A DNA stretch of 64,000 bases from a virus. Lineage: Duplodnaviria > Heunggongvirae > Uroviricota > Caudoviricetes. The DNA lies in IMG/VR virus record IMGVR_UViG_3300046691_000084, positions 1-64,000 of that record. The stretch is one strand, 5' to 3'. The notes below the pieces were generated by a model. It was not told where the DNA came from, did not search any database, and saw only the letters and a list, made by a program, of their open reading frames with translations. Both the position numbers and the translations under genes were made by a program. Positions 3,566 through 19,763 of this stretch are shown in pieces. The stretch's first letter is position 1. Each line of letters begins with the position of its first letter.

Positions 3566-3604
3566 CGTCTCGAAAACTCACTGACCGGACGGGATGTCCT
3601 TTCA

Positions 3605-3624
3605 GGGTTAAGTTAACGGGCTTG
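3605..3624 (-). promoter_or_regulatory. motif A copy 1 (plus: GGGTTAAGTTAACGGGCTTG; coding strand CAAGCCCGTTAACTTAACCC)
   Basis: Identical 20-mer at 3605, 35872 and 56927, plus a close variant at 27426; all intergenic and all upstream of minus-strand genes. Confidence 0.45.
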
Positions 3625-3637
3625 CCGGTGCAAAAAT

Positions 3638-3937: not shown

Positions 3938-3946
3938 GATTAACCC

Positions 3947-4255
3947 TTATTTTAGGTTATTCCACAGCCCTGAGAAATGATCACCATTAATAGCGAACCG
4001 AGTCTTCAAGAAGTTTTGAGTTTGACGATCAAAGCAGAAAGCTGACATGAGCATCATTTCACGAGGCGAATTATTAATGGTCTGTGCCATGGCTCGTTTC
4101 AGATGATCAAGGTTCAGGAACACATAGCTCATCTCCTCAGTACGAACTACGACATGCTCTCGAAGATCAAGAACAAAACCGTACTCATTACCTACAGCAA
4201 AGAGATTTTCATAGCGTTCAATTGCATCGATTAGAGGTGTAGATGTGACTGTCAT
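3947..4255 (-). CDS. hypothetical protein, 102 aa
   Basis: Minus ORF, 2-nt gap to neighbour. Confidence 0.45.
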   Translation of the reverse strand: MTVTSTPLIDAIERYENLFAVGNEYGFVLDLREHVVVRTEEMSYVFLNLDHLKRAMAQTINNSPREMMLMSAFCFDRQTQNFLKTRFAINGDHFSGLWNNLK

Positions 4256-4256
4256 T

Positions 4257-5114: not shown

Positions 5115-5210
5115 GAATAATTTGTAATATCGTAGTCATGCGGGTGTTTTGAGTCTAAGTGGCAGCCATCAGTTGGATACCAACGAACTACACCATCTGA
5201 ATCAACTGTT

Positions 5211-5441
5211 CTAATTGACCGTATCAGGCCGTCCAGAAACAGTGTCACCTTGACATACGATTGGTCCCTTCTTCGGAACATTGCGCCGATGCTTTCTGCG
5301 CTTAGGAGCTTTTTGAGTGGCACTATTATTATCCTTCTTACAATCTGAACATTCGCGAGTGTAGCCAACATCCGCGCCTATGTAGCAAAGACATTGCGAA
5401 CAGTGTGAACCATCTGCTACGTTATCTTCGAAGAAACTCAT
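5211..5441 (-). CDS. hypothetical Cys-rich small protein, 76 aa (alternative to the overlapping 5096..5371 ORF)
   Basis: CSQCLC...ECSDC pattern; two mutually exclusive frames here and I cannot decide which is real. Confidence 0.3.
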   Translation of the reverse strand: MSFFEDNVADGSHCSQCLCYIGADVGYTRECSDCKKDNNSATQKAPKRRKHRRNVPKKGPIVCQGDTVSGRPDTVN

Positions 5442-5648
5442 GTGTATCCTTAGATCGGGTTGTACTGTTTCAAAGTCACCGCACCAGTATCTGTCTCGAT
5501 ATCAAACCACCATAGCACTGGATGATTTGGATCTTCAATCAGTTTATTCGAAGACCAATCCCAACGCCATACAGTACAGTCAATGAACGACGATACTGAG
5601 TAGAAACTGCAATCTGCTGCAATGTATGAGCAAGCAGGTGGTAAACGA

Positions 5649-6338
5649 CTACCAGCCTTCCATAGGGAATTCAAGGTAGACCTGAGCATTTCTTCTGTAT
5701 TCGTTTGTACAGGTACTAGCCCTTTCTGTGTCCCAGCTGACGCGACCAAACCACCGCCAGCCATTACTAATAGCTCGGGTTGCTTGATGAAAAGTTTGCC
5801 AATCGAAATGGACCAGAGTCCTATCAGGAGTAGAAACACTACTAAGCTCGCCAGTATCAACAGCACGCTGTATATGTCGATGCCACTCTTTGTAAATGAC
5901 AGCATCATCCGGTAGTCCAGGAAGCTCGATATCCCCAATAGCAAATTGAGTAGGAGCAGTCTCGGCATTGACAAGGCCAAGAATATGCGAAGACCGGTAA
6001 CGAGGGCTGTCATAATCAGGTTGTCCTGCTGTAGCAAAATGTTGACCAACTGGAATTGGCGGGCGTGGTACATCATCGTGGTGAAAACCAGGAATAGCTG
6101 GAAACCATCCAGGCATTAGCATATGAACACGGCTATCAAAGACAGCTGGCACATAATACAAATGTTTTGGTAAGTTCTCGATGAATGATCTGGTGATCGG
6201 GCCTCCGTTCTTATAAGCAAAGTCTAAGTTGGCATTGAAGAACATAGGCTCTTCTTTGATTTCTCTATTATCGACTCTTTGTGCAAAGGGCCTTAACGTC
6301 TCTATACGAGAGCTAAAGAAGTATTCTTTACAGTCCAT
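5649..6338 (-). CDS. hypothetical protein, 229 aa; possible 2OG-Fe(II) oxygenase-like (HHDD...H)
   Basis: Long minus ORF with diverse composition; GFHHDD and WHRH motifs loosely resemble an H-x-D...H facial triad. Confidence 0.5.
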   Translation of the reverse strand: MDCKEYFFSSRIETLRPFAQRVDNREIKEEPMFFNANLDFAYKNGGPITRSFIENLPKHLYYVPAVFDSRVHMLMPGWFPAIPGFHHDDVPRPPIPVGQHFATAGQPDYDSPRYRSSHILGLVNAETAPTQFAIGDIELPGLPDDAVIYKEWHRHIQRAVDTGELSSVSTPDRTLVHFDWQTFHQATRAISNGWRWFGRVSWDTERASTCTNEYRRNAQVYLEFPMEGW

Positions 6339-6339
6339 G

Positions 6340-6564
6340 CTATTCCTTAATGGTTAATTTTCCAAGAAGAGCTTGAGCTTCATCAATGCTCTTTAACGTA
6401 ATTAACTTCTGCTCATAGTCGCGATAGTCACCGCCGCCGTTCCCATAAGATGGGTCATACCATCTTTGACCACATTCTACAATGTCATAGACCACATATG
6501 GCTGCCTGAAGAACGGTTTCACCAAACGCGGGGATATCTTCAGAGTTGGTTCCATAGAGCACAT
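6340..6564 (-). CDS. hypothetical protein, 74 aa
   Basis: Minus ORF 2 nt downstream of the 5649..6338 start. Confidence 0.45.
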   Translation of the reverse strand: MCSMEPTLKISPRLVKPFFRQPYVVYDIVECGQRWYDPSYGNGGGDYRDYEQKLITLKSIDEAQALLGKLTIKE

Positions 6565-6576
6565 TAGAACTCCAAA

Positions 6577-6605
6577 GGCACCACAAAGAGCTATTTCATG
6601 GTGCC
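6577..6605 (-). terminator. possible hairpin terminator (GGCACCA / TGGTGCC, 7-bp stem)
   Basis: Inverted repeat after the stop of 6613..7632; weak T-tract (TTTGGAG). Confidence 0.3.
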
Positions 6606-6612
6606 GACATGA

Positions 6613-7632
6613 TTAGTCGAAGATTGTGTCTACGATCGAAGCAATATAAGTGCTATCAATCTTAGTGCCAGGCTCAGCAGCTGAAATCGCTTGAATCAGC
6701 TGGAACATGTATGCAGTATCCACACCAATAAGCTGTTCACGAAGTACTCTAGGATTCTTTAGATCAAGCTCATTGACTTGCCATACAATTTTGAGAATCT
6801 GCCCTGCCGTAATACTCCAGCCACGACGCATGAACTTCCGCATCCGAAACAAGGAACAGATGGGGTACAAGGAGCCACGATAGATAAGATTCTTCCCGAG
6901 GATGGACTCCATTGCTTCAGGATGCAAATTAAGCACATCTGCAGCGTAGTCGTACGAACACATTGAGTGAGCGTAGTCATAGTTTTTGTAGATCTCATCA
7001 GGCTCGCCATAGAAACGCATAACCATCTGGACACGGTCAGACAGTGTGATAGCATTGTCACTGAAGAATACAGGACGAAACTTTTTCTTATGCCCACGAA
7101 GATCTTGTTTTAGCTGTTCAGCATCGACCATTGGATCGGGGACATTAGTGTCCATGAACTCACTGGCAGATTGTTGTTCTGGATCCTGGTCACCATACTG
7201 CAATGATGCGGCAAAGTCTTCAGTATTCTGGCCTGCTTCGCCTTCAAAGTAGCGGTACTCAGTCTGCTCTTCACCCGCCACACCGGCGGATTTGATGTAG
7301 ATCACCACACGATTTTCCATCTCACCACGGATGTTAGGTGCAGTGATGATCTTGGCATATGGATTGCAACTCGCAATAGCCGTAGTCTTCAGCTGACCTT
7401 TAGTCTTGTTAAACTGCTCTGTATAATAATCAGCAACAGCCTTACAAGTATCCAAATCACGGAAATACAGATCGAAGTCCTTAGGACGTTCGTTCGATAG
7501 CATGCTGGCGATAGCACCACCACAGATCAGAAGATTCTTCTTCATCAGTTCTTGGACATTTGTGTCCTCAACCGACTCAATGATCTCTTTGACTTTTGCA
7601 CGCATTGCCATACGAATAGTGGACGATTTCAT
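6613..7632 (-). CDS. nucleotidyltransferase-fold (Pol-beta-type NTase) protein, 339 aa
   Basis: LLICGGAIASMLSNERPKDFDLYF matches G[GS]-x(9-13)-D-x-[DE] of Pol-beta superfamily NTases; the rest is unrecognised. Confidence 0.55.
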   Translation of the reverse strand: MKSSTIRMAMRAKVKEIIESVEDTNVQELMKKNLLICGGAIASMLSNERPKDFDLYFRDLDTCKAVADYYTEQFNKTKGQLKTTAIASCNPYAKIITAPNIRGEMENRVVIYIKSAGVAGEEQTEYRYFEGEAGQNTEDFAASLQYGDQDPEQQSASEFMDTNVPDPMVDAEQLKQDLRGHKKKFRPVFFSDNAITLSDRVQMVMRFYGEPDEIYKNYDYAHSMCSYDYAADVLNLHPEAMESILGKNLIYRGSLYPICSLFRMRKFMRRGWSITAGQILKIVWQVNELDLKNPRVLREQLIGVDTAYMFQLIQAISAAEPGTKIDSTYIASIVDTIFD

Positions 7633-7955
7633 TAACGCTTCCTGATTACTAGAGTTTTAGCGATTTGTTGTGAACTACCGCCGTAAGCCATTTTCATTAC
7701 GGCAATCTTAATATTGTCACGATTTGAGTGATGGAACTCAAAAGAATTACCACAGTACCACCAACGTCGTAGCCGTACTCTAGGTGTATATTGTGTACGA
7801 ACACAAGCTACATAACCGATTTTTAACAGGTCATCCCAAATATTAGTCTTTGGATTCGCCCAAGGGATTTTCTTAATATCCTCGCGCATTTGATCTACAG
7901 TCTCAACAGTTTGCTCATCGACCTTAGGCCAGTAAAACTTTCTGAGAAGTCCCAT
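7632..7955 (-). CDS. hypothetical protein (~108 aa if started at MGLLRKF)
   Basis: Track ORF 7632..8021; the internal ATG near 7955 gives an ATGA-type junction with the ligase stop at 7957. Confidence 0.45.
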   Translation of the reverse strand: MGLLRKFYWPKVDEQTVETVDQMREDIKKIPWANPKTNIWDDLLKIGYVACVRTQYTPRVRLRRWWYCGNSFEFHHSNRDNIKIAVMKMAYGGSSQQIAKTLVIRKR

Positions 7956-7956
7956 A

Positions 7957-8862
7957 TTACATATCCATCTTAGAGCGCCAACCAAGGGCGCGAGGGAAGC
8001 GTGGCAAATCTTTCGAGCCATGTAGAAAGAATCGGAACTTAAGGAGTTTGCCGAGGAATAGTTCTTGGTTCATCCAGATGTCCTCTAGTTCTGTATGCTT
8101 AAAGGACCCTGGGGCTACTTCAAGCGTCAGTCCATTCCATTCTACCAGGAACTTGCCGACCATATTCACCGGAGTCTTGCCCGCCTTGGCGGAGGACCTC
8201 TTGGCGAACCCTAGTTCATCCCGTTCCTGGACGTTGTTGTTAGCCATGCGCTGGACAAAGCCAACTACACGACCTTCAGTGTCCTGAAAGCGTTTCACCT
8301 TATAGATGATGCCTTCATTCATCGTCGCTCGACCTTGCTTATAGCGACCTACAGGGTCACGCAGCATGATTCCTTCGAAGCCCTTTTCGAGCTCACCATT
8401 CTCGAATTCAAGAAGTTCTTCCATGTTATTTAATTCGACATGGAGGACTGGGAAGTAGTCTTCTCGATTACGAATCAGACCGTGCGCATGTTCAAGGCGC
8501 TCATAGTACGGCTTGTCGATGATACCAGGGAGCACACAGTCGAACACATAGTAGCCTATGTCATGAGGCTTATCCTTTGACATGATGTGGCTTTGACTAC
8601 GGTTGTAGACATCAAAGTTATGTGGGTTACCAGCAATCAGTTCACCATCAAGCCCTATGATACTTGTGAAGTCTTCCTGAACCTGACGGCTTGGAATAGG
8701 TTTCCAGGTCCGAGACATGGCGCCATCTTCAGCTATAATCGAACGGATACCATCAAACTTTGAAGAACCGAGCAAAGGGAACTTCTTGGCGACGATATTA
8801 AAGAACTCAGGGTTCTTTTGCGGATCATCGATCGGGGACAGCAGGGGACGAAAGACACCCAT
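7957..8862 (-). CDS. ATP-dependent DNA ligase, 301 aa
   Basis: Adenylation motif I KFDGIRS (K-x-D-G-x-R); size and context as in T7-like ligases. Confidence 0.75.
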   Translation of the reverse strand: MGVFRPLLSPIDDPQKNPEFFNIVAKKFPLLGSSKFDGIRSIIAEDGAMSRTWKPIPSRQVQEDFTSIIGLDGELIAGNPHNFDVYNRSQSHIMSKDKPHDIGYYVFDCVLPGIIDKPYYERLEHAHGLIRNREDYFPVLHVELNNMEELLEFENGELEKGFEGIMLRDPVGRYKQGRATMNEGIIYKVKRFQDTEGRVVGFVQRMANNNVQERDELGFAKRSSAKAGKTPVNMVGKFLVEWNGLTLEVAPGSFKHTELEDIWMNQELFLGKLLKFRFFLHGSKDLPRFPRALGWRSKMDM

Positions 8863-9215
8863 TACAACTCTCCTACGCTTGCAAGCGCTTGTTCAGCCAT
8901 TTGGAAATCACGAATTGGGGCACTATCTCCTACTTCTGCTTGACTCACATAAGTCAACAACCGGCCATACTTCTGGTCCAGTGCGACTGCTTGAATCGGT
9001 GTATCGGCATGTAAGATGAACCACTGTTTACAGCTACCACATTTGTAAGCATCATGGCGCTTATCTGGGTAATCTCGGATGGTGCTCGCTACACCACCAC
9101 AGTTGCCTTGCCATGTATTACAATGCGGACATTGATTATCAAACCCGTACATGTTCATGAAAGCTTTGCGTTCTTGTTTCAGTGCCCAATTTTTGATCAG
9201 TTGTACAAGCTTCAT
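8862..9215 (-). CDS. hypothetical zinc-ribbon protein, 117 aa (CPHC...CGSC)
   Basis: Two CxxC pairs; shares a boundary nucleotide with the ligase. Confidence 0.5.
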   Translation of the reverse strand: MKLVQLIKNWALKQERKAFMNMYGFDNQCPHCNTWQGNCGGVASTIRDYPDKRHDAYKCGSCKQWFILHADTPIQAVALDQKYGRLLTYVSQAEVGDSAPIRDFQMAEQALASVGEL

Positions 9216-9335
9216 GATTCACTCTAATAGTTAGGAGCCGACGTCCTTGTCAGCGAGCTTCATTTCTTACGCTGTTCTTTCGCCTTGTTTAGCGCGATTG
9301 CGACAGCTTGTTTCTGACTCTTACCCGCAGCCTTT

Positions 9336-9734
9336 TCAGCTTTGATATTGTGGGCGATTGTCGCCTTGTCGGAACCCGGAAGTAATGGCATTGATCGTAT
9401 CCTCTAAGCGTTCGGCCGAAGCCTTTTCATGAGTTACCATCTCCACACGTTTTGCTATTTCATCATCCGTGAACAGGAAGAGGGGGTCCACAGAAACTTC
9501 CATGATGTACAACTCAGGAACTTTCGGACCACCATCGAAAACCTCCCGAATCGTAGCCATATAATCTGGCTTTGTAAGAAACACAGCATCGAACTCTCGT
9601 TTAGCAAGTTCTTCATACTCAAACAGCTTTGCTGCAGTGACCTTACGATCCCACAATGGCATGCTGCCTTTCGTTAAACTGGTGAAATAGCCAACATACT
9701 CTGGAAACTGCATTGCGATTACAAAAGCTCTCAT
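9336..9734 (-). CDS. hypothetical protein, 132 aa
   Basis: Minus ORF. Confidence 0.5.
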   Translation of the reverse strand: MRAFVIAMQFPEYVGYFTSLTKGSMPLWDRKVTAAKLFEYEELAKREFDAVFLTKPDYMATIREVFDGGPKVPELYIMEVSVDPLFLFTDDEIAKRVEMVTHEKASAERLEDTINAITSGFRQGDNRPQYQS

Positions 9735-10039
9735 TGCTTAGTCCTTCTTATAGTATCAAGAACAACATGTGTACGGTCGTAGATATCGCACACATGTAGC
9801 CAAGGCCCTGCACCTGCTTCAACCATGTCCAGCGAAGTATGCCGGTAACGTGGCAGCTTGTGTAAGGCGATCATGTTTGTAACGGCCGTCTGCTGATTAT
9901 AGACTTCTAAGAGTCTCTTCAATACATTCAGATGGTCCGACTGGCTCAACAGCATAATGAGCTCAGGTGTCGTCTTTGACAGGTAGCTATCCATATCTTG
10001 TACTTCACCCATGTTCACACTCCTTTCAATATGCATCAC
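9731..10039 (-). CDS. hypothetical protein, 102 aa
   Basis: Minus ORF, 4-nt overlap with neighbour. Confidence 0.45.
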   Translation of the reverse strand: MMHIERSVNMGEVQDMDSYLSKTTPELIMLLSQSDHLNVLKRLLEVYNQQTAVTNMIALHKLPRYRHTSLDMVEAGAGPWLHVCDIYDRTHVVLDTIRRTKQ

Positions 10040-10700
10040 TCAGTTTAACAAACTCCTCTTTCTTGTCCTTACGAAAGATCAAGTCACACGCATGCAACAA
10101 GAAATCTTGGGCAGCTTCCCGACGTGCAGCAAACATTGGCAACATGTTTACAGTCTTAAAGGTGACACCTTGGATCTGTACAGAAGGTAGTCCTTCCATA
10201 TTTACCATAGCCTTATCGAGCTTCTCGATGTCATTGATGACATTGACAATGGTCTCTTTTTGCTCAAGTGTGAAAGCTGCGAACTCATGAACGAACATGC
10301 ACTGAGATTTCCAAGCCAAGATACCACGCTCAGTGATGTCGTGCTTTACCTTGTTAGGGATCAACGCTACATGTGAGTTATCGATCCGCTTAGTAGAGGT
10401 GAACTTAGCACCAATACTATCCATCAGGTAAGCCGCCAGGGCGAACTGATCTGGACGCATTCGAATCGAAGTATCACCATGTACGTTCACAACAACAGGG
10501 CCGAGGAGTTCACGCATCTCACGGATGTGTTCTGCCTTCTTACCTCCAGCACGTTGTTGAAGGGCGTGGACCAGGTTGAAAGCATTGACAATGTAGCTGA
10601 CATTACAGTGCATTAGATTGTTCTCAGAAACTTGATGATGTCGTTGATGATGGTGCTGCGGCGCTCGCCAGCTGCTTTGAGTACGGTGTCTGTGTAGCAA
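10026..10700 (-). CDS. hypothetical protein (224 aa as given; real start probably internal, e.g. MHCNVS near 10616)
   Basis: The N-terminal His/Gln-rich part overlaps 10613..10879 in another frame, so the start is probably downstream. Confidence 0.45.
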   Translation of the reverse strand: MLHRHRTQSSWRAPQHHHQRHHQVSENNLMHCNVSYIVNAFNLVHALQQRAGGKKAEHIREMRELLGPVVVNVHGDTSIRMRPDQFALAAYLMDSIGAKFTSTKRIDNSHVALIPNKVKHDITERGILAWKSQCMFVHEFAAFTLEQKETIVNVINDIEKLDKAMVNMEGLPSVQIQGVTFKTVNMLPMFAARREAAQDFLLHACDLIFRKDKKEEFVKLSDAY

Positions 10701-10879
10701 ATAATGCCACCAAATTCCATAGTCTTGGCGTGATTTTCCTTATTCAGAAGATCATTACACCGAGAAAGCTCGTCGAGGGTCGGTTGAATCGTCATCATTA
10801 CTTCCGTAAGACGCTCAGCTTGTTCATCGGTAAATTGCTTTGTGCTTAGTAAAAGAGTTGGAATCATGGATAGGTCCAC
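10613..10879 (-). CDS. hypothetical protein, 88 aa
   Basis: Minus ORF. Confidence 0.4.
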   Translation of the reverse strand: MDLSMIPTLLLSTKQFTDEQAERLTEVMMTIQPTLDELSRCNDLLNKENHAKTMEFGGIICYTDTVLKAAGERRSTIINDIIKFLRTI

Positions 10880-11277
10880 TTGAAACGTCCTTTGATTGTA
10901 TTACCGATGAATACCACTGCTTGAGGTTCTGGTGCCAATAACACAGGCTTCTGCTGAAGCTCATACGTTACATCATCACCTTTGTTCTCAATGAAACCAG
11001 GTCGAATTGCCCTTAGCAGTACCGGCTCACCTTCCCAGCTCGGGATCGAGATGAGTAGTTCGCAGTCAACTGGTGGGAGGATCGATTCGTGGTTGAGGTG
11101 GAAATCTTCGGGGACACAGGAACCGGTTCGGCTGAAACCCGAATTTGTGCCCATGAAGGAATTGATGTCTGCTTTGCTTCCTGTTTTTCCAAATGACCTG
11201 AAAACAAGAACTCGTGGCATAGATTTGTCTGAACGACTGTGTTCTGCGAGAATGCAGAGAGATAATTTTTTAGACAT
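10864..11277 (-). CDS. hypothetical protein, 137 aa
   Basis: Minus ORF; its start ATGTCTAA overlaps the stop of the frame-shifted upstream gene. Confidence 0.45.
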   Translation of the reverse strand: MSKKLSLCILAEHSRSDKSMPRVLVFRSFGKTGSKADINSFMGTNSGFSRTGSCVPEDFHLNHESILPPVDCELLISIPSWEGEPVLLRAIRPGFIENKGDDVTYELQQKPVLLAPEPQAVVFIGNTIKGRFKWTYP

Positions 11278-11936
11278 TCTTGTTCCGCTCGATACGACGT
11301 TGACGTTTCTTCTCGGCTGCTGCTAGACGTTCCAAATCTTGTACGGATGGCTTCCGTGATGTGGTTCGTTCTTGGCGTGAAGGAATGGCCAATTGTGCCA
11401 ATGTTGACGTCTTCTTTGCAGTACCAGAGAAAGTCTTTCTTTGCGAGGGAGTCCCACTCGTCGAAAACAAAGAGAGGCTTGATTTGATCAGCTTTGAAAT
11501 CCAGGTGAAATTTAGAAAGTTCATGCTCTCTTCTCTTTAAAATATTAAGCGTTTGTGTCATACCGGGGAGCAACCCACGGCTTGTAAATGACGGCCAGAT
11601 TGCCATTGATGCAAACATTGCATCGCGCTCTTGCTGATACCAACTCAGATCCATGACGTCGTGCATGCTGCGCGGCGTGCTCGCGATGACCGTCACATTG
11701 GCCGTCTTGCACTTTTCGCGCAGGTGTTGCCATAGCTCCAGAGAGGCTATCTCTCCGTCAACTACCATGACCTTCGACGGACCTGGGTGGTTATGATCAA
11801 TTGGCACAGCCCTTCTAAAACCACTTGTATATAGTTCTTCATAGAAAGGATCATGGACCACACGTCGCCAATTACTTTCCAAATCGAAGTAATGCTTATT
11901 GTCCGACATATCCGGCAGGTTCCTTGGTAGTGTCAT
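11270..11936 (-). pseudogene. hypothetical gene apparently split across two frames (11936 to ~11350 in one frame, ~11350 to 11270 in another)
   Basis: The 307-aa track ORF 11013..11936 runs out of frame into 10864..11277 with a Ser/Thr-rich tail, while a second frame ends naturally (…DLERLAAAEKKRQRRIERNKNV) with a coupled ATGTCTAA junction; suggests an indel or recoding near 11340-11400. Confidence 0.35.
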
Positions 11937-12489
11937 GTCCTAATTTAGGGCAACTTTGACAGAAGCCTCCAAGACCACATTGACCGCCATCACAAAGAGC
12001 TTCATCTGACTCTTTAGTGTGAATCATGTGACCTTGCCAACCTTCAAACATGTGTTGCGTCCGATCTTGTTTATAGACACGGAAACTATTCGGGCATTGT
12101 GTTGGAGTCAACAGCGCATTTTGCCCTCTTGCGAACTCTTCAAAGGCATCTTTACCTTCGAATTTAGTCACAGTAGGAAACTTCAATAGTGCTCGCAATG
12201 CACCATTTTGTTCTTGTAATTTGACAATCTCCTGCTTATAACGAGAAGAACCGCCATAGGCCTTAGAACGTTCAATCCCCTTTATGATCGCATTGACGCG
12301 TCGTTGTAGCGGTGAGGGGACACCTACTTGAAGAACATCTTGAAGTGTTTCAATCCAACCAGATTTTCTGATGGACTGCTTCTCAGAACCTGGAGAGGTT
12401 ACTTCAATCAGATAGTTGTGGATATCAACCAGCTGAGCTTCAAGGTATGCGATGTAAGCTTCATCGGAAGCAAATTCATTACGTGACAA
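11896..12489 (-). CDS. hypothetical protein, 197 aa
   Basis: Minus ORF. Confidence 0.5.
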   Translation of the reverse strand: MSRNEFASDEAYIAYLEAQLVDIHNYLIEVTSPGSEKQSIRKSGWIETLQDVLQVGVPSPLQRRVNAIIKGIERSKAYGGSSRYKQEIVKLQEQNGALRALLKFPTVTKFEGKDAFEEFARGQNALLTPTQCPNSFRVYKQDRTQHMFEGWQGHMIHTKESDEALCDGGQCGLGGFCQSCPKLGHDTTKEPAGYVGQ

Positions 12490-12490
12490 T

Positions 12491-12895
12491 TCAAGCTCTC
12501 CTTAGTTCTGCTGTATATTCTAGAATAGCTGCCATAGCCTTCTCAGGATGGTGCTTAGGGTCACCAGACAACCATTTCGAGTAAGAGTATCTAATCCCTT
12601 TTCTCGCAAATGAATTATCATGATACTGTTGTGCAAGACCTAACACCATGGAGTCTAAATCAGACATTGCAGGTATCAGGTTGACTAGAGAACCGCCTGG
12701 CCGGCCTTCTAGTTCGACTGTATATTGATCATCTGGGATTAGTGCACCGATCGCACACATACAACCGCCAGGGCTACGATAAAGACAACCAAAGCTGGCA
12801 CCTAGCTTACCAACAGATCGCTTCTTCTGTGTAACTAGATGGCTGACAATCTTCTTTGCAGCCTCATCATTGGTATAACGAAACTGGTGGGTCAT
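12491..12895 (-). CDS. paralog-array member 7 (134 aa): HLxxQK / CxYRxxxGxMCAIGxLIPD / YHD / WxxGxxxHHP family
   Basis: Shares all four conserved blocks with the six genes immediately upstream. Confidence 0.6.
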   Translation of the reverse strand: MTHQFRYTNDEAAKKIVSHLVTQKKRSVGKLGASFGCLYRSPGGCMCAIGALIPDDQYTVELEGRPGGSLVNLIPAMSDLDSMVLGLAQQYHDNSFARKGIRYSYSKWLSGDPKHHPEKAMAAILEYTAELRRA

Positions 12896-13368
12896 ATATT
12901 AATCTTCTTTGTCAGTCGCAGCTCATTCATAAGCAAGTCAGCCATCACTCTCGGATGATGCGCTTCATTACCATTGACCCACTCTTCATAACTGAGCCTT
13001 TGATGTTCTTTAGGAACAGCGCCATCATGATAGTATTGCATCATCTGTAGAGCATTGATGTTGACATTCTTTAGAGCAGGGATAGTCCATACAACTTGAT
13101 CAGCAGAGAAGCACTCCATCATCGGATCGTAGTCAACATCAGGAATGAGCACACCTAGCGCGCACATCCGGCCTGATACACCACGATACTTACACTCGTT
13201 TTTAGCATCAAGTGAAAGGGCTTTCTGTTTAACAAGATGAGTTATAACCACATTAAGCGCTTGTTCTGTGGTATAATAGCCTTTATAAACTTCGACCTTT
13301 GTTCCAACGGGCGTGGGCGGCTTCAGCGGCGGTAATGAAAAGGTTGGGGTGATGTTCATCATTTCCAT
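12892..13368 (-). CDS. paralog-array member 6 (158 aa as given; the N-terminal 85 nt overlap member 5, so the start is uncertain)
   Basis: Same conserved blocks (HLVKQK, CKYRGVSGRMCALGVLIPD, YHD, WVNGNEAHHP). Confidence 0.55.
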   Translation of the reverse strand: MEMMNITPTFSLPPLKPPTPVGTKVEVYKGYYTTEQALNVVITHLVKQKALSLDAKNECKYRGVSGRMCALGVLIPDVDYDPMMECFSADQVVWTIPALKNVNINALQMMQYYHDGAVPKEHQRLSYEEWVNGNEAHHPRVMADLLMNELRLTKKINI

Positions 13369-13702
13369 CTAACCACTTTTGGTAAGAGAAGGCAAAGCCA
13401 TTTAATAGAGCTTCACTATCATGATAGTACATACACATGCCTAGTACGTTTGCAGGTACATTAACAAGGATATCTATTAGCATGCTACGAATATATGTTA
13501 CAGCCATACCTTCGAGGTGAACTGTATAATGAGCATCAGGAATCAATACCCCTACAGCGCACATTAGCCCATCTGGCGATCGAAACTTGCAGGAATCACC
13601 ATTGACGCCCAATGAACGTGATCGCTGGTTTACCAGATGAAGACGTATCTTCTCAAGTACTTCTAGTACTGTCAATGCTTCAGACAATTCCATACTCCTC
13701 AC
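13283..13702 (-). CDS. paralog-array member 5 (139 aa)
   Basis: HLVNQRS, CKFRSPDGLMCAVGVLIPD, YHD, WLDGNDEHHP. Confidence 0.6.
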   Translation of the reverse strand: MRSMELSEALTVLEVLEKIRLHLVNQRSRSLGVNGDSCKFRSPDGLMCAVGVLIPDAHYTVHLEGMAVTYIRSMLIDILVNVPANVLGMCMYYHDSEALLNGFAFSYQKWLDGNDEHHPNLFITAAEAAHARWNKGRSL

Positions 13703-14063
13703 GGATGTGTACCATTAGCCTTTCAGGATGGTGGGCGTCGTCCCCGCCGATCCATTTCTTATAACCAAAAGAAGGTCCACCACGTAGCTTGGACGTATAA
13801 GTACCATCATGATACATCTGGGTTGCCCGCATAGCATCCAGGTGTAGCTCTTTAAAGGTATTTCCAGATACCGCGACGATCCAAGATATCGGCTTAAATT
13901 CCAAACCTTCGTTGTAAAGGTCATCTGGAATCAGAGCACCAAAGGCGCACATTCGGCCATCTTCACAACGATATTGGCAAACACCGCTAACTTCATTAAT
14001 TGAGATAGCTTTCTGTTTGATCAAGTGGGCTTCAATTATATTCAATGCATCGGAAGTGTTCAT
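13680..14063 (-). CDS. paralog-array member 4 (127 aa)
   Basis: HLIKQK, CQYRCEDGRMCAFGALIPD, YHD, WIGGDDAHHP. Confidence 0.6.
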   Translation of the reverse strand: MNTSDALNIIEAHLIKQKAISINEVSGVCQYRCEDGRMCAFGALIPDDLYNEGLEFKPISWIVAVSGNTFKELHLDAMRATQMYHDGTYTSKLRGGPSFGYKKWIGGDDAHHPERLMVHIREEYGIV

Positions 14064-14458
14064 ACGATTCCGTATTCCTCGCGGATAGCAGCAAAGGCCA
14101 AGTCAGGATGATGATTTACATCACCTTCAATCCATTTCATGTAGCAGTAGCCTTCAGGCCGTTTCGATCGACTACCAAACAAGACACCATCATGGTAAGA
14201 TAAGGTCAACTGAATCGGGCCTAGGTCAAGATCTTTGTCAAACAGATTCGGCCATCGCATACGAAGTGTATTGGCTGAGCTAGCCTCCATCGAAGAATCA
14301 TAGAGCTCATCTGGAATAATAGAGCCTACTGCACACTTCAAACCACATTCAGTACGCAATCGACAGGCACCTGCCCGGCCTTCGCTAATCGCCTGAGCCT
14401 TCTGTGTAATCAAGTGAGCTTGGATCTTACCCAATGTTTCGAGGGTCACTTGATTCAT
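14060..14458 (-). CDS. paralog-array member 3 (132 aa)
   Basis: HLITQK, CRLRTECGLKCAVGSIIPD, YHD, WIEGDVNHHP; ATGA overlap with neighbours. Confidence 0.6.
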   Translation of the reverse strand: MNQVTLETLGKIQAHLITQKAQAISEGRAGACRLRTECGLKCAVGSIIPDELYDSSMEASSANTLRMRWPNLFDKDLDLGPIQLTLSYHDGVLFGSRSKRPEGYCYMKWIEGDVNHHPDLAFAAIREEYGIV

Positions 14459-14880
14459 ACTGTGGTCTCCAACGCGGGGGTAGACTTGGTCATTTCAGAG
14501 TCCCATTTCTTATGATACTCTTCAATAGCTTTGAAGGCTAAGTCTGGATGGTGTAATTCATCGCCTTGGATCCATTTGTAGTAAGAATAATCAAAGCCAG
14601 GCACATGGAAGACTGCATCATGATACCGCTGTGCCATATGCAACTGCTTCAGATTTAAACCTTCGAAGACTGTAGGCAGCAACGTCACAAGTCTAACTAC
14701 AGCTGTATGCTCATGTTCATAAGCATTGTAAAGATCTTCTGGAATCAAAGGTCCTATTGCACACATCAGACCATTATAGCGATACTTGCACGCCCCATGG
14801 CATTCAGAGCGCGCTTTCTGCTTGATCAAATGTTCACGAGAAATGATCAAAGCTTGTTCATTAGTATACATAGCAGCCAT
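14455..14880 (-). CDS. paralog-array member 2 (141 aa)
   Basis: HLIKQK, CKYRYNGLMCAIGPLIPED, YHD, WIQGDELHHP. Confidence 0.6.
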   Translation of the reverse strand: MAAMYTNEQALIISREHLIKQKARSECHGACKYRYNGLMCAIGPLIPEDLYNAYEHEHTAVVRLVTLLPTVFEGLNLKQLHMAQRYHDAVFHVPGFDYSYYKWIQGDELHHPDLAFKAIEEYHKKWDSEMTKSTPALETTV

Positions 14881-15332
14881 TACATAGCTCCCAAGTGGTG
14901 TTTCATTGCTAATGCGCTCATGAGCCGTTCTGGTGAGCTTCGTTCAGCGCCTGCAAGCCAAGCAGCATAACTGTATGCCTCGTGACTAGCAGTGACGGCA
15001 TTGTCATGGTAAGACTGGAGGTCATTTAAAAGATCAGTTTTGAGATGCTTAAATATCTCGCTAACAGGATCCTGGTACTTAAGTCTGTAAATCGAGCCAC
15101 CTTCAAGACACTCGTGGTACATAGTATCAGGTATCAGCACACCGATTGCACACATGCAATTCTCAGGACCACGATACAAGCAACCATTATCGCCACGGGA
15201 TTGCTTTTTCTGAGTAGTCAAGTGATCGATGATTCGTACTAGAGCCGCTCGAGTGGCTTCCAAGTCAAAACCACTACGTGTGTTTGCAAGAGTCATAATA
15301 TTTCCAAGAAAAAATAAGTAGAGAAGGCCCAC
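14880..15332 (-). CDS. paralog-array member 1 (track start at 15332 is a GTG inside the terminator hairpin; probable ATG start at 15296, about 138 aa)
   Basis: HLTTQKK, CLYRGPENCMCAIGVLIPD, YHD, WLAGAERSSP. Confidence 0.55.
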   Translation of the reverse strand: MGLLYLFFLGNIMTLANTRSGFDLEATRAALVRIIDHLTTQKKQSRGDNGCLYRGPENCMCAIGVLIPDTMYHECLEGGSIYRLKYQDPVSEIFKHLKTDLLNDLQSYHDNAVTASHEAYSYAAWLAGAERSSPERLMSALAMKHHLGAM

Positions 15333-15347
15333 CCCGAAGGGTGAGCC
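15305..15347 (-). terminator. rho-independent terminator with UUCG tetraloop
   Basis: Minus-strand RNA GGCUCACCC-UUCG-GGGUGGGCC (9-bp stem, one G-U) at 15326-15347, followed by a U-rich run; lies after the stop of 15350..15673. Confidence 0.5.
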
Positions 15348-15349
15348 AT

Positions 15350-15673
15350 TTATGGGTGTTCTCTGTAAATCCAGTCTTGGATGCTAGCAATATGCCTTAG
15401 TTCCATCCCAAGAATTTTAAGCAATTCACCAAGTTCTTCCTTTTGAACACTAAACCAGCTAGCTTGAACCAAGCAATCATAACGACCTGAGTGTGTCAGG
15501 CAATTGTAGATCTTCTGGTATGCAGGTCTGTATGCACTGAACCTATCAATTATCTTTTCAAAGTCAATTTGATTTGGAACATTCTCAACATCGCATAGCA
15601 ATGAGATATGCTCTGCCTCACACGCATCCCAGCCATATGGCCCTTTCAGCAACAACATCTTTAGAAGTCCCAT
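15350..15673 (-). CDS. hypothetical protein, 107 aa
   Basis: Minus ORF. Confidence 0.5.
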   Translation of the reverse strand: MGLLKMLLLKGPYGWDACEAEHISLLCDVENVPNQIDFEKIIDRFSAYRPAYQKIYNCLTHSGRYDCLVQASWFSVQKEELGELLKILGMELRHIASIQDWIYREHP

Positions 15674-15886
15674 GGATTAGAATATTGAATATGATCCGCT
15701 AGGCCATATGCAATAAACATTGTTACGGCTATTACAATTACTTTTCCAACTTCAAGAGCTTTCTTATTATTACACATGTCCACACCCCTGCTTCTTTTAC
15801 GGGCTGTCGAATGAATTGTTCAGGAGACACTACAGATGCCTTCTGAATGAGTTCACCCAACGTTGCAGCTGTATATTCAATGTACA

Positions 15887-16123
15887 TCAGACTACCATAT
15901 GTTGCCGTGGCGTAATTTGAAACACACTGCGATAGCCATTATCATGACTTGCTACAGCATGCCCTACTGCAAGCTCGACTTCAAAAGTCTGACCTGCGAG
16001 CAGGAGGTTGTGGATTCTATGGACATGCCCAGTACCAACACGAGAGTGCGTTCTGATGTATTCCACCATGTCGTCTAAAGTGTCGAATCCCAAACACTTT
16101 CCGTTAAGCTGGAGCTGAGCCAT
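15887..16123 (-). CDS. hypothetical protein, 78 aa
   Basis: Minus ORF; two further sub-60-aa coupled ORFs (about 15750-15895 and 15662-15778) probably fill the gap to 15673. Confidence 0.4.
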   Translation of the reverse strand: MAQLQLNGKCLGFDTLDDMVEYIRTHSRVGTGHVHRIHNLLLAGQTFEVELAVGHAVASHDNGYRSVFQITPRQHMVV

Positions 16124-16502
16124 ACATCCTCACTCCTTTGTTAGCTGCAAAGATATCAAGGGCCTGTGACGGTAAGATACTACCAATCATAGAACCTGCT
16201 ATTGTTGCTGCGAGTGCAATTACATTGAAGCGTAAGTCTTTATCCATAGCCATATCAGAGTACGGTGGGCAGATCGCTAGAATGCCCTTCTGATTTATGA
16301 CATGAACTTCTTTCTTCTGCTCTACAAACAGGATTTCGATCTTTGCAGACTTCATCAATCGACTTGCACACTCATTCTGACTCAAGGGCGTCCAGGTGCA
16401 TTGAAGCTTCATCGACTCAATATCCATTTCAATGGACGATGCGGCTGAGGTCAGGAGTTGCTCAGCACGGCTTTGTTCAACATTCGTCATTAAGCTTCTC
16501 AT
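16104..16502 (-). CDS. hypothetical protein, 132 aa
   Basis: Minus ORF. Confidence 0.45.
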   Translation of the reverse strand: MRSLMTNVEQSRAEQLLTSAASSIEMDIESMKLQCTWTPLSQNECASRLMKSAKIEILFVEQKKEVHVINQKGILAICPPYSDMAMDKDLRFNVIALAATIAGSMIGSILPSQALDIFAANKGVRMYGSAPA

Positions 16503-16824
16503 CTTCAGGGCAGCTGTCTAGGATTGCCCAGACTTTGAGGTTGTTCTTTGTTGCAATCTTCTTGGCTTCAATCTCACCAATCAAACGAGATATGGTAGGG
16601 ACTGTGCATTCAAAGATTTCCGTGATACCAGATACAGATCCTTTTACGATCTTCCTCACTGACATACGGACGTACCAGCCTTGGGTAATCGCTGTTTCTT
16701 TGGCTGTTTTGCGAAAGTGGGATACACTTTTTGCAAGAGTCTCTTCAACCTTAGTATTCAGGCCGAGAGCTTTACGCATTTCTACTTCGATATCGTGATC
16801 AAAAGTCATAGTTATTTCACCCAT
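16477..16824 (-). CDS. hypothetical protein, 115 aa (or start at MTFDH, 16809)
   Basis: Minus ORF preceded by motif B and a UUCG hairpin. Confidence 0.45.
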   Translation of the reverse strand: MGEITMTFDHDIEVEMRKALGLNTKVEETLAKSVSHFRKTAKETAITQGWYVRMSVRKIVKGSVSGITEIFECTVPTISRLIGEIEAKKIATKNNLKVWAILDSCPEDEKLNDEC

Positions 16825-16837
16825 TGGTGTCAGTTAT

Positions 16838-16869
16838 AATTTTAAAGGGAAGCCCCGAAGGACCTCCCT
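16838..16869 (-). terminator. hairpin with UUCG tetraloop (GGGAGGUCC-UUCG-GGGCUUCCC) followed by UUUAAAAUU
   Basis: 9-bp stem including G-U pairs at 16847-16868; sits between motif B and the next start codon. Confidence 0.5.
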
Positions 16870-16877
16870 ATTTGTTT

Positions 16878-16902
16878 TCATATAAGATACCAAATTCCCC
16901 GC
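16878..16902 (-). promoter_or_regulatory. motif B copy 2 (plus: TCATATAAGATACCAAATTCCCCGC)
   Basis: See the copy at 3090; located after the NrdB stop. Confidence 0.4.
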
Positions 16903-16920
16903 TATGGGATTTTCAGTCTC

Positions 16921-17961
16921 TTACGCCAACGTTCCGTCTGCTTTTACACCACGGAATTTACCCCACACATCAGACCACGAACCACTGACAGCACCTTTGG
17001 CGTACGATGTGGCACGCGTTTCAAAGAAGTTCTCATGGTTCTGGCTGGCGATCATTTCATCAACCCATAGCAACGGGTTCTTCTTGACACCGTGAATGCC
17101 TTTCAGACCTAGGCGAATAAGACGACGATCCACAATATATTGGATATACAGCTTCAAGTCTTTCTTCTTCAGCCCACGGAACTCGTCTTCATCGCCATAT
17201 GCTTCATCGATGTAGTCGAATTCTAGTTCAGTCATGAAGTCGGCAGTCGCATAAATCTCTTGTTGAGACTCAGCGGTGTCCCACAGAGGGTTCTCCTCGA
17301 TGATGGTATCGAAGATTTTGGAGAGCCCTTCCACGTGCTTTTGTTCATCCAGGATTGACCAGGATACAATCTGACCCATACCTTTCATAACGCCCGAACG
17401 TGGGTACGTCAGGAGCATGACGAAGGTGGAGAACAGAAACATACCTTCGGTGAACGCCGAGATCCCTGCAATTTGAATCGGCAGAGCTTCTTTCTTGGTC
17501 GAGCTATTAACGATGCTCTCGAAGAAGTCATGCTTAGCCTTCATCACAGGGATTTCAAGGAATTTAGCGTAGAAGCTATCATCCTTACCAAGCGTCTCGA
17601 TCAGGTACGAGTAGGCGTCGATATGAAGCGCTTCACGGGCGGCAAAGCCCAAGAGCATCATACGGATTTCTGGTGCAGGGAAGTGTGGCAGGTAGTCCTT
17701 GATGTAACCATTAGCCACATCAACATCACCCTGGGTAAACAACAAGAAGTTGTTAGTCAGGAATTGCCGGTCCTTCTCTGTAAGCTTGCGGCTCCAATCA
17801 CGGATGTCTTCGTGAAGGGCAACCTCACGTGACAGCCAATGCATCTGTTCGTGTTCCAACCAAGCATCGTACGCCCATGGATATTGAAAGGGCTTGAAGA
17901 CGGTACGCTCTTGGAAGATTGGTGACAGCTTTTGTTTGGCTTTCATTCGCATGCTAGGCAA
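16921..17961 (-). CDS. nrdB: ribonucleotide reductase class I small subunit (NrdB-like), 346 aa
   Basis: Di-iron ligand pairs E-x-x-H (FAAREALHIDAYS and LDEQKHVEG); ferritin-like helical composition; adjacent to the large subunit. Confidence 0.75.
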   Translation of the reverse strand: MPSMRMKAKQKLSPIFQERTVFKPFQYPWAYDAWLEHEQMHWLSREVALHEDIRDWSRKLTEKDRQFLTNNFLLFTQGDVDVANGYIKDYLPHFPAPEIRMMLLGFAAREALHIDAYSYLIETLGKDDSFYAKFLEIPVMKAKHDFFESIVNSSTKKEALPIQIAGISAFTEGMFLFSTFVMLLTYPRSGVMKGMGQIVSWSILDEQKHVEGLSKIFDTIIEENPLWDTAESQQEIYATADFMTELEFDYIDEAYGDEDEFRGLKKKDLKLYIQYIVDRRLIRLGLKGIHGVKKNPLLWVDEMIASQNHENFFETRATSYAKGAVSGSWSDVWGKFRGVKADGTLA

Positions 17962-19763
17962 CCTTCGACTTCGAGTGTTTTATACGCTACTGTGGATTTA
18001 CGACGACGACTCGCGACAGCCTTGTTCATGGATTCACCATGATAGATCTTCTCGGAGCGGAAGTAGTATAGAGTCTTCTGACGACGTTTCTTGCCATCAC
18101 CTTTCCATGCCCGGTAGTGATCTAGGTGAATAACACCAAGCTCCTCGGTAGGCTTGTAACAAAGGTTTACAGACTGGGCTTGATCGATAAACGGAGCACG
18201 ATCGTTGGCGTGTTGAATCACCCAAGCCTGTTTGATTTCAGCAAACGTCTTGAAGACATCTTTCTCGTAGTCACTAAGGAATTTCAATCCTTGTGCCGAG
18301 CCAGCAGACGCAATTACAGTCGACCAAGCTTCATTATAGTCATCGTCGTTTGCACAACGCTCTGTAATGATCTTGTCAAGGAATTGGTTGCGATTCATGT
18401 AGCTACCAGACAGAGTATCCTGACGGTAACCATTGTTGCGGAATGGTTCAATGCTCGGTGAAGTGTTCCCCATGATGATCGAGGAAGACGCATTAGGAGC
18501 AATTGCGATCATATGACTGAAGCGTTTCATGACACCAGCAGATGCAGCATCTGGGCATGGACCACGCTCTACAGCAAGCTCATAGTTCACTTCATCCAGA
18601 TGCTTACGCATGCCGGAGAAGATCTGCATATTGATGGAGACAGCGAGCGCCGATTCGAAAGGGATCATTTTCGATTGGAGATACGCATGGAAACCTAAAG
18701 TACCAATACCAATGGCACGTTCACGCATTGCAGAGTAGACGGCGCGCTTGATCTTCCTTGGAGCCTTCTTGATGAAGATAGTGAGGGCATTATCCAGGAG
18801 TTCAGCGACGTCACGGTAGAACTGATGATTGTCCTTCCATTGGTCTCTGTATACGAGATTGAGCGAAGCAAGGCAGCATACGGCAGTACGATCTTTATCT
18901 GTGGCCAGGGTGATTTCTGTACAGATGTTCGACTGACATACTTCTAGACCGAGAGCCTTCTGATAATCAGGAAGATTCTCGTTAGAACGGTCCACAAAGT
19001 GCATGAACGGTTCGCCAGTACGGATACGGGTAGCGATGATCAGCTCCCATAGCATACGAGCAGATACAACTTCACGGACTTCACCGGAGTGCGGATCGAT
19101 CAACGGCCAATCATCATTCGCGTCTTCATCAAGCATACAGCGCTCGATAATCTCCATGAATGCATCAGGGATATTGACACCATGGTGAAGCTCTTGGCAA
19201 CGTTGATGCTGGTCGCCAGTAGGTTTCCGCATCTCAATGTGCGGGATAATGTTAGGGTGCCCAATGCCCAAGTAGGTAGCAAAGGAGCCACGACGAGTCT
19301 TACCTTGCCGATAAGCCAACGAGATTGCCTCGTAGACCTTATTGTGTGGCATTACACCAACAGACTTCTCATCTTCTGCACGAATGCCCATCCCAAGACC
19401 AACACCACCACCCATCATCGAGAGGTATGCCACTTCTTGCATGGTGTGAACCAGACCATCAGCGTCATCAGGGATATACGACAGATAACAACTGATCGGC
19501 AGCGCACGTTTGTTCAGACCGTACGACAGAATCGGCGTACTAAAGCTGAGCCAATGCATACTGGCATAATCATAAATTCGTTGTGCATGGGCCGGATTAG
19601 AAGCCAATGCGCGTGCTACATAAGAGTAACGATCTTGTGGAGATTTCTCCTCTTTACGCATATACGAATCTTTGAGGCGTCGCATCCCCATTTCATCGAA
19701 TAGTGCATCACGGGAGTAATCTACTTTAACTGCTGATTTAGGGATCATAATACGTCCGATCAA
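17943..19763 (-). CDS. nrdA: ribonucleotide reductase class I large subunit (short NrdA-like), 606 aa
   Basis: Active-site SNICTEI (N-x-C-x-E), CLASLNL cysteine, and a C-terminal CLAC redox tail. Confidence 0.75.
   Translation of the reverse strand: MIGRIMIPKSAVKVDYSRDALFDEMGMRRLKDSYMRKEEKSPQDRYSYVARALASNPAHAQRIYDYASMHWLSFSTPILSYGLNKRALPISCYLSYIPDDADGLVHTMQEVAYLSMMGGGVGLGMGIRAEDEKSVGVMPHNKVYEAISLAYRQGKTRRGSFATYLGIGHPNIIPHIEMRKPTGDQHQRCQELHHGVNIPDAFMEIIERCMLDEDANDDWPLIDPHSGEVREVVSARMLWELIIATRIRTGEPFMHFVDRSNENLPDYQKALGLEVCQSNICTEITLATDKDRTAVCCLASLNLVYRDQWKDNHQFYRDVAELLDNALTIFIKKAPRKIKRAVYSAMRERAIGIGTLGFHAYLQSKMIPFESALAVSINMQIFSGMRKHLDEVNYELAVERGPCPDAASAGVMKRFSHMIAIAPNASSSIIMGNTSPSIEPFRNNGYRQDTLSGSYMNRNQFLDKIITERCANDDDYNEAWSTVIASAGSAQGLKFLSDYEKDVFKTFAEIKQAWVIQHANDRAPFIDQAQSVNLCYKPTEELGVIHLDHYRAWKGDGKKRRQKTLYYFRSEKIYHGESMNKAVASRRRKSTVAYKTLEVEGCLACE

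Follow-up and report, generated by a model that had tools for sequence, protein, structure and literature searches.

The closest described relatives of the gene array reported here are the phage protein family PHROG 17693, an entry of unknown function that carries no functional, structural, or motif description, and a set of proteins from cultured phages, all annotated as hypothetical: gp169, gp170, and gp226 of Pseudomonas phage pf16, homologs in Caulobacter phage Cr30, Ralstonia phage phiRSL1, and Sinorhizobium phages phiM7, phiM12, and phiN3 (gp135), and ORF16 of Vibrio phage VpV262. The array occupies positions 12491 to 15296 on the minus strand of a 64,000-nucleotide (nt) stretch of DNA from a marine phage of the Caudoviricetes (IMG/VR record IMGVR_UViG_3300046691_000084, positions 1 to 64,000), referred to below as the window, and comprises seven adjacent, translationally coupled open reading frames (ORFs), g1 to g7, that are paralogs of one another. 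The cultured-phage proteins are homologs of these by tblastn (E values down to 6e-28) and by predicted fold; each phage has one to three copies with ≤34% identity to the window copies, and pf16, like the window, has adjacent copies as well as a two-domain fusion. PHROG 17693 represents the same protein family as the array copies, all seven of which match its profile hidden Markov model (HMM) significantly (E 4e-13 to 3.5e-5; PHROG 31716 gives a weak match). That profile spans 259 positions, a length that fits a two-domain member, and the copies cover positions ≈11 to 107, its first repeat; the seven-copy array, the subfamily insertion, the invariant center, and the tendency to expand described below are not recorded in the entry. 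The array is a genuine, old, and lineage-specific tandem expansion of a single-domain, functionally uncharacterized phage family. What was known is a PHROG of unknown function and the fact that paralog arrays are common in phages; what is new is a protein family and a fold without a characterized relative, the function of which could nonetheless prove familiar.

Close relatives of the window phage are limited to two Logan contigs, L082, hereafter the sister phage, and the fragment L083. The seven array genes are as follows, with residue counts in amino acids (aa) and identities referring to the sister-phage ortholog.

14880..15296, minus strand: g1, 138 aa from ATG 15296; S-S-P replaces H-H-P; not in the sister phage
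14455..14880, minus strand: g2, 141 aa; start overlaps the g1 stop (TAATG); not in the sister phage
14060..14458, minus strand: g3, 132 aa; ATGA overlap with g2; C terminus ...REEYGIV; ortholog 68% identical
13680..14063, minus strand: g4, 127 aa; ATGA overlap with g3; C terminus ...REEYGIV; not in the sister phage; the copy modeled with AlphaFold2
13283..13693, minus strand: g5, 136 aa from ATG 13693; GAGGAG ribosome-binding site ahead; 14-nt overlap with the g4 stop; ortholog 70% identical
12892..13368, minus strand: g6, 158 aa; start ATG 13368 within g5; 86-nt overlap; ortholog 63% identical
12491..12895, minus strand: g7, 134 aa, isoelectric point (pI) 9.0; ATGA overlap with g6; ortholog 64% identical

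A first-pass annotation, made from the sequence of the window, had described seven consecutive, translationally coupled paralogs that were old and diversified, and this description is borne out, with corrections to two gene starts and to the motifs. A full-length alignment of the seven copies shows 20 invariant columns (H, L, Q, C, R, C, A, G, I, P, Y, E, Y-H-D, Y, W, G, and P), and pairwise identity ranges from 28 to 43% (mean 35%). An HMM of the family matches exactly these seven ORFs in the window, each with an E value of 1e-19 to 1e-27 and thus far above chance, and finds no eighth copy elsewhere in it. The genes are joined by a TAATG junction (g1/g2), by ATGA overlaps (g2/g3, g3/g4, and g6/g7), and by overlaps of 14 nt (g4/g5) and 86 nt (g5/g6). 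The most likely start of g5 is ATG 13693, preceded by GAGGAG. The 86-nt overlap is genuine: the g6 ATG sits in the W-L-D-G-N codons of g5, and both this ATG and the open frame are kept in the sister phage. The pI values of the six copies other than g7 lie between 5.8 and 6.5.

We counted residue conservation in the family over 434 nonredundant domain sequences, using g4 numbering. C39, G42, H85, and D86 are 100% conserved, followed by C29 and A40 (99%), Q82 (98%), Y31, I45, and Y50 (97%), Q17 (96%), R32 (95%), and D47 and E55 (91% each); H13 is conserved in only 87%, and a Trp is present in most members. The signature of the wider family (alignment A4) consists of an invariant C-x(9)-C-A-x-G and Q-x-x-H-D, with Q17, Y31, R32, D47, Y50, and E55 near-invariant. 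All seven copies carry C29, C39, A40, G42, H85, D86, Q17, R32, Y50, and E55, and the exceptions at the level of single copies are a Leu at Y31 in g3, a Glu at D47 in g2, and a C-x8-C spacing in g2. Among the seven copies, residues 29 to 55 are the most conserved (mean majority fraction 0.67), and residues 56 to 77 and 87 to 100 the most variable (0.38 and 0.34, respectively). About eleven polar residues are thus 91 to 100% conserved within an ≈90-residue core of roughly 21% mean column identity, and they are concentrated in a loop-rich segment; this looks like the mark of a ligand-binding, metal-binding, or catalytic center rather than of a fast-evolving inhibitor surface.

The motif blocks listed by the first-pass annotation are not strict, as g3 reads C-R-L-R where [YF] was given, g2 has a one-residue deletion between the two Cys, g5 reads Q-R in place of Q-K, and g1 reads S-S-P in place of H-H-P. 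The last of these blocks, W-x-x-G-x-x-x-H-H-P, is a subfamily-specific insertion, with the pattern Y-x-Y-x-x-W-x-x-G-x-x-x-H-x-P, that recurs in P0142 and P0148-P0157 and is not family-wide. As the first His (H13) is conserved in only 87% and H-H-P is confined to the subfamily and absent in g1, only part of the Cys/His signature first taken to suggest a metal-binding fold can be essential. The part that stands is the two Cys and the His-Asp pair, which are invariant throughout the family and would be compatible with a metal site.

The family is large. The seven-copy profile retrieves 17,298 matches at E ≤1e-3 and 3,519 at E ≤1e-10 among 1.84 billion cluster representatives (clusters at 50% identity), and a word-indexed search returned 25 matches with the same profile and 688 with a broader one, all 688 of which are labeled "hypothetical" and lack a precomputed Pfam domain. 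The first-pass annotation did not recognize the family, and database searches agree: scans of the seven copies against Pfam, NCBIfam, and PADLOC gave nothing meaningful, and PHROG 17693 is the only match. Weak matches to bpX2, PDZ_1, and PhnZ were rejected, each involving one sequence only and falling below the cut-off, and among 142 relatives scanned against Pfam, no two matched the same entry. A literature search on the PHROG identifiers, DUF6197, and tandem paralogs with anti-defense found nothing on the array family. At the DNA level, megablast of the array region against 50,697 phage records gave no relative. A metagenome scan with the array profile gave distant relatives only, the best-ranked with ≤47% identity (56% over one short fragment), and a corresponding scan with the gene downstream of the array gave nothing.

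The family is mainly viral and almost exclusively phage-borne. In IMG/VR, we confirmed 110 stretches of it on contigs of 7 to 350 kb; a strict pattern found only 13 loci in 185,579 species genomes, and the sole bacterial context examined, that of a Mesorhizobium locus identified independently of this pattern, proved to be a prophage. Members occur in podoviruses, T4-like phages, jumbo phages, and prophages, and the hosts of the cultured phages that carry them include Pseudomonas, Caulobacter, Ralstonia, Sinorhizobium, Burkholderia, Vibrio, Xanthomonas, and Synechococcus. Family members are small, soluble proteins, most of them mildly acidic (median pI 5.5).

Tandem amplification is habitual in this family. 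Of 77 IMG/VR viral loci of at least 8 kb, 24 (about 30%) carry two or more copies, and of 82 successive domain pairs, 59 consist of same-strand neighbors. The metagenome contig Ga0194128_10003145 (L139, positions 1736-8000) has eight copies in 6.3 kb, and a 350-kb jumbo-phage contig (L051, positions 2690-10015) has six. Within the sample analyzed, the nearest relative of a copy is another copy of its own array in seven of seven cases in the window, seven of eight in L139, and six of six in L051; this pattern, which holds for nearly every copy in these arrays and in L057, argues that the expansions are independent and lineage-specific. Two- or three-domain fusions account for 38 of 282 top matches and have no other domain attached, and every domain in the fused proteins keeps the invariant residues.

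Comparison with the sister phage shows how such an array changes. L082 is syntenic with window positions 10053-16881, and most flanking proteins are 61 to 88% identical, but its array has four members, the orthologs of g3, g5, g6, and g7, and lacks g1, g2, and g4. Since the three missing genes are as diverged as the other copies, loss or recombination exchange in L082 is likelier than recent gain in the window. The genes g3 and g4 have a common 3' end (...REEYGIV), and g3 of L082 (...RKEYGIV) runs directly into g5; judged from sequence, this shared end and the g3-g5 junction form the footprint expected of unequal crossing-over, for which the shared end would be the substrate. A sister phage with four of seven copies implies that individual copies are dispensable, which fits an accessory role. 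Purifying selection acts on the retained copies, as the proportion of nonsynonymous differences between orthologs (pN, 0.19 to 0.23) is far below that of synonymous differences (pS, 0.62 to 0.82, saturated), with values similar to those of flanking genes. Estimates of the nonsynonymous to synonymous rate ratio (dN/dS) are limited by this saturation, and one flanking pair (gene 16483), computed out of frame, is disregarded.

We modeled g4 with AlphaFold2 from a 142-sequence alignment, one of the checks suggested with the first-pass annotation, and obtained a very confident model (predicted local distance difference test score, pLDDT, 96.4; predicted template-modeling score, pTM, 0.89). The N-terminal part of the model consists of a helix followed by a long segment, conserved and rich in loops, in which the two Cys bracket a small hairpin; the later part comprises several short helices, another helix with Q-x-x-H-D at its end, a β-hairpin that corresponds to the subfamily insertion, and a C-terminal helix. 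A Foldseek search of the model against 350,542 PDB chains gave nothing below an E value of 4.5, and the predicted fold is thus one without a solved relative as of the April 2026 copy of the PDB. A fold search of BFVD returned uncharacterized phage proteins only, three of them from pf16, with a template-modeling (TM) score of 0.79 to pf16 A0A1S5R3U5. Sequence searches of the PDB with two profiles gave as their best match domain III of an arylamine N-acetyltransferase, which was rejected as chance-level (E about 1). A natural fusion, P0026, is modeled as a single confidently packed unit (pLDDT 93, pTM 0.80), and this predicted packing hints that separately encoded neighboring paralogs may pair as well.

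Our preferred reading, to which we assign a rough probability of 0.35, is that the array domain is a small one that binds a metal or a ligand and may be catalytic, and that the paralogs supply differing specificities. Each copy would form a compact, loop-rich helical domain of ≈115 to 130 residues with a β-hairpin flanked by the two invariant Cys, in which C29, C39-A-x-G42, and H85-D86, ringed by Q17, Y31, R32, D47, Y50, E55, and Q82, would make up one putative metal-assisted binding or catalytic center. The residue mix of this center (two Cys, His-Asp, Arg, two Tyr, two Gln, Asp, Glu, and mostly Trp) would suit a site at which a metal assists in handling a ligand that is probably small and anionic, and most plausibly a nucleotide or a nucleotide-derived molecule. 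The paralogs keep the center and vary at g4 residues 56 to 77 and 87 to 100 and in the C-terminal helix, which could set specificity or the choice of partner. An array would in this way offer the same chemistry with several specificities, candidate roles being manipulation of the nucleotide pool or neutralization of nucleotide-based host signals, and the natural two- and three-domain fusions suggest that neighboring paralogs may work as pairs or higher oligomers. Genomic context also counts in favor of this reading: the array operon is part of a DNA-metabolism module, family members elsewhere lie near a DNA polymerase or primase (detailed below), and the phiM7 gene follows a deoxyribonucleotidase.

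Several points weigh against this reading. The conserved Cys, His, and Asp could form a purely structural zinc site or a staple of the hairpin, and the clustering of the conserved residues in space is presumed. One natural fusion modeled at pTM 0.80 bears only indirectly on interaction between separate paralogs. With dS saturated, positive selection confined to small surface patches is compatible with the data. Proximity to replication genes may simply mirror where phages keep their accessory genes, as the pf16 copies lie among small hypothetical genes; the clustering of neighbors shows no conserved functional partner, replication genes being the sole recurrent neighbors, and among the 282 top matches checked for domain fusions, none is to an informative domain.

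The alternative that survives best, although we consider it doubtful, is that the copies are binders used in anti-defense or host takeover, structural-metal scaffolds whose variable surfaces inhibit different host proteins, whether these belong to different defense systems or represent variants of a single host factor, for example; in that case, the conserved residues would have a structural role alone. The first-pass annotation had read the array as the pattern of an arms race, and several observations speak for it: the copies are individually dispensable, which fits an accessory role, their number differs between sister phages, independent tandem expansions recur across phage lineages, and in pf16 and the Mesorhizobium prophage the copies are surrounded by other small accessory genes. 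The small size, solubility, and mild acidity of the proteins and the concentration of variability at residues 56 to 77 and 87 to 100 point the same way. The conserved center and an ortholog dN far below dS look unlike a fast-evolving decoy, however, and eleven polar residues kept at 91 to 100% over >400 domains are in excess of what a structural metal site needs and unusual for inhibitors. Very different phages and hosts are spanned, and this breadth argues for a universal target; furthermore, no copy has a PADLOC match, and there is no fold match to solved anti-defense proteins.

A role on nucleic acids within the replication module, as a minimal nuclease, an accessory factor of repair or recombination, or a regulator of the phage polymerase, with paralogs that recognize different sequences or structures, is distinctly unlikely in our view. 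It draws on genomic position: the array was found not in a classical early region (the first-pass annotation had spoken of an early/accessory one) but inside a DNA-metabolism module, with ribonucleotide reductase (16921-19763) on one side and DNA ligase (7957-8862) on the other. Among other loci, 24 have a family-A DNA polymerase and eight a primase/helicase within 8 kb on the same strand; the VpV262 gene is directly upstream of the primase. The conserved His-Asp together with Glu or Asp could also hold a catalytic divalent metal. Against such a role stand the acidity of most members (median pI 5.5) and of six of the seven array copies, the failure of nuclease, helix-turn-helix, and zinc-finger models to match, and the lack of fold likeness to known nucleases or DNA-binding domains.

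That the copies are very divergent members of a described superfamily, either DUF6197 or the HD-domain phosphohydrolases, so that neither fold nor chemistry would be new, is highly improbable: a DUF6197 gene lies ≈0.85 kb from the Mesorhizobium-prophage copies and has a similar layout (helix, C-x-V-G-x-L, N-D or H-D), one of 142 family members matches DUF6197 (E 0.0086), and g1 has a weak NCBIfam match to the HD-domain oxygenase PhnZ (E 0.13), but hhalign of the family against DUF6197 aligns just 12 columns with an E value of 0.29 and a probability of 0.2%, Pfam gives no match to DUF6197 or an HD domain at E ≤1 for any of the seven copies, and the family lacks both a conserved Asp after the HD pair and a strictly kept first His (87%). 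The probability left over by the preferred reading and these three alternatives falls to something else.

The family, and the preferred reading of it as a small-molecule center with diversified specificities, matter in several ways. More than 17,000 clusters have no Pfam model, name, or structural relative, yet possess near-invariant residues that resemble an active site and have been amplified independently across lineages. Should the conserved center bind a small molecule or convert it, phage biology would gain both a new fold and a new chemistry, and the arrays would represent natural specificity libraries. A further proposal, which we regard as unlikely, holds that these proteins are structurally novel small phage enzymes or sponges with a Cys/His-Asp center that act on nucleotide-derived molecules, such as immune second messengers or intermediates of the deoxynucleoside triphosphate pool, and have repeatedly been amplified and diversified into arrays, or fused, to cover several ligands; if true, it would amount to a modular, multispecific toolkit for counter-defense or metabolic takeover in thousands of phages. 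The window is a good test set, as its operon contains seven diverged copies, four of which recur in the sister phage, and family members are available in the cultured phages pf16, Cr30, VpV262, and phiM12.

The array is bordered upstream by a hairpin and a spacer, and further upstream by a repeated motif; downstream, its operon continues.

16876..16908, minus strand: repeated motif CCCAYWGCGGGRAAWTKGGTATCTTATATG; ends in the start codon of gene 16483-16881; nearest candidate promoter or leader upstream of the array operon
15326..15347, minus strand: hairpin GGCUCACCC-UUCG-GGGUGGGCC; directly past the stop of gene 15350-15673
15297..15325, minus strand: T-rich spacer UUCUCUACUUAUUUUUUCUUGGAAAUAUU from the hairpin to the g1 start codon; conserved in the sister phage
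11896..12489, minus strand: next gene of the array operon on the downstream side, 197 aa; outside the array family and without family assignment; sister-phage ortholog 72% identical

The hairpin has a 9-bp stem and a UUCG loop (dG −20.9 kcal/mol, z −4.3 by RNA folding). The first-pass annotation had called it a terminator; the hairpin is real and is kept in the sister phage, but its T-tract is interrupted, and a scan for intrinsic terminators made no call there. The GTG at 15332, previously given as the start of g1, falls in the 3' arm of this hairpin; ATG 15296 is the most likely start. Hairpin and spacer (window 15297-15347; L082 1836-1890) are almost identical in the two phages, and in L082 the element runs directly into the g3 ortholog; as synonymous sites in the flanking genes are saturated, this near-identity points to a functional RNA or DNA element in its own right, such as a terminator, a processing site, or a promoter. 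The hairpin forms the fixed 5' boundary of the array and may serve as a terminator, attenuator, or processing site. A scan of IMG/VR for its exact sequence found three unrelated hairpins only.

The motif CCCAYWGCGGGRAAWTKGGTATCTTATATG (repeat family D5) has three exact core copies in the window, at 3088-3120, 16876-16908, and 34794-34826, and another in L082 at 275-303. The copies end in the start codon of the downstream gene, and the motif, to judge by this placement, may be a promoter or leader of near-leaderless genes, the copy at 16876-16908 heading the array operon. A second repeat, GGCAAGCCCGTTAACTTAACCC (family D6), has four intergenic copies in minus-strand reading, at 3605-3629, 27426-27450, 35872-35896, and 56927-56951, which are candidate promoters for a phage-encoded RNA polymerase or candidate terminators.

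Downstream of the array, the TTG start of gene 11896-12489 lies 1 nt past the g7 stop. Gene 11013-11936 (minus strand), the second gene translationally coupled downstream of the array, is likewise without family assignment; it is only ≈35 to 38% conserved relative to L082, with an apparently elevated dN/dS of ≈0.75, and evolves much faster than its neighbors. The genes inside the eight-copy array of L139 gave no Pfam matches.

Essentially all genes of the window are on the minus strand. In order of transcription they encode a portal, a MuF/RNA-polymerase fusion, capsid, a 3,211-aa protein, tail-fibre-like proteins, and a T7-type RNA polymerase, followed by a family-A DNA polymerase, primase/helicase, ribonucleotide reductase, small ORFs, the array, genes without assigned function, and DNA ligase. 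The primase/helicase shares 46% identity with its counterpart in Roseobacter phage CRP-7 and 42% with the one in DSS3_VP1. The MuF fusion (56949-61619, minus strand), two genes downstream of the portal gene and about 0.5 kb from it, is a 1,556-aa protein with a Phage_Mu_F head-morphogenesis domain at residues 145-250 (E 4e-11), a match to PHROG 414 at residues 861-1099, and a single-subunit RNA polymerase domain, PF00940, at residues 1401-1494 (E 2e-10); it could be a virion-packaged, ejected RNA polymerase. The T7-type RNA polymerase of 758 aa is encoded separately (29714-31990). The 3,211-aa ORF (42071-51706, minus strand) has an N-terminal TMP_3 tape-measure domain at residues 119-308 (E 1e-48) and stands in a genome with replication genes that resemble those of the T7 supergroup or of podoviruses. 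About eleven tandem 30-nt (10-aa) repeats lie at 37352-37681 (minus strand) inside a 1,282-aa tail-fibre-like gene (37037-40885).

We lastly compared the array family with named systems to which its Cys, His, and Asp residues might relate it. Papain-like, NlpC/P60, and transglutaminase-type Cys-His-Asp hydrolases, secreted or prokaryotic phospholipase A2 (His-Asp dyad, Gly/Cys-rich calcium loop, PLA2 fold, C-C-x-x-H-D-x-C-Y motif), PD-(D/E)xK nucleases (P-D...E), the QueD/PTPS triad, and the ZAS anti-sigma factors were rejected on fold and HMM evidence. Zinc ribbons, treble clefs, and ZAS proteins use four Cys/His ligands in a class-typical spacing, with bound zinc. In the array family, only two Cys and the His-Asp are invariant, and CxxC knuckles are lacking; zinc-finger models gave no Pfam match in the seven copies and no fold match.

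DUF6197 (PF19698), itself of unknown function, resembles the array family in several features: it is small, occurs in phages or prophages, has a helix at its N terminus, and contains a C-x-C-x-V-G-x-L motif ahead of an N-D-H motif. The DUF6197 gene of the Mesorhizobium prophage (L081, 8839-9156) lies upstream of two adjacent family copies; membership was rejected, given no match at E ≤1 and a hhalign score short of significance. HD-domain phosphohydrolases are helical proteins with a conserved His followed by a metal-binding His-Asp doublet and are often found among phage nucleotide-metabolism genes. The array copies do not show the H...HD...D pattern on an HD fold, and the likeness is one of functional analogy only.

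No sequence or fold similarity was found to known anti-defense proteins of solved structure, namely Ocr, ArdA, KlcA/ArdB, Tad1/2, Acb1/2, Apyc1, AcrIII-1, and anti-CRISPRs, and the PADLOC-DB HMMs gave no match at E ≤0.1 for the seven copies and two neighbors. Tad1, Tad2, Acb1, Acb2, Apyc1, and AcrIII-1, all small accessory proteins of phages, act on immune signals derived from nucleotides, either by binding or by destroying them. By analogy, a role as such a sponge or hydrolase of nucleotide signals is one that the conserved Arg, Tyr, and Trp and the acidic center of the array family would suit.

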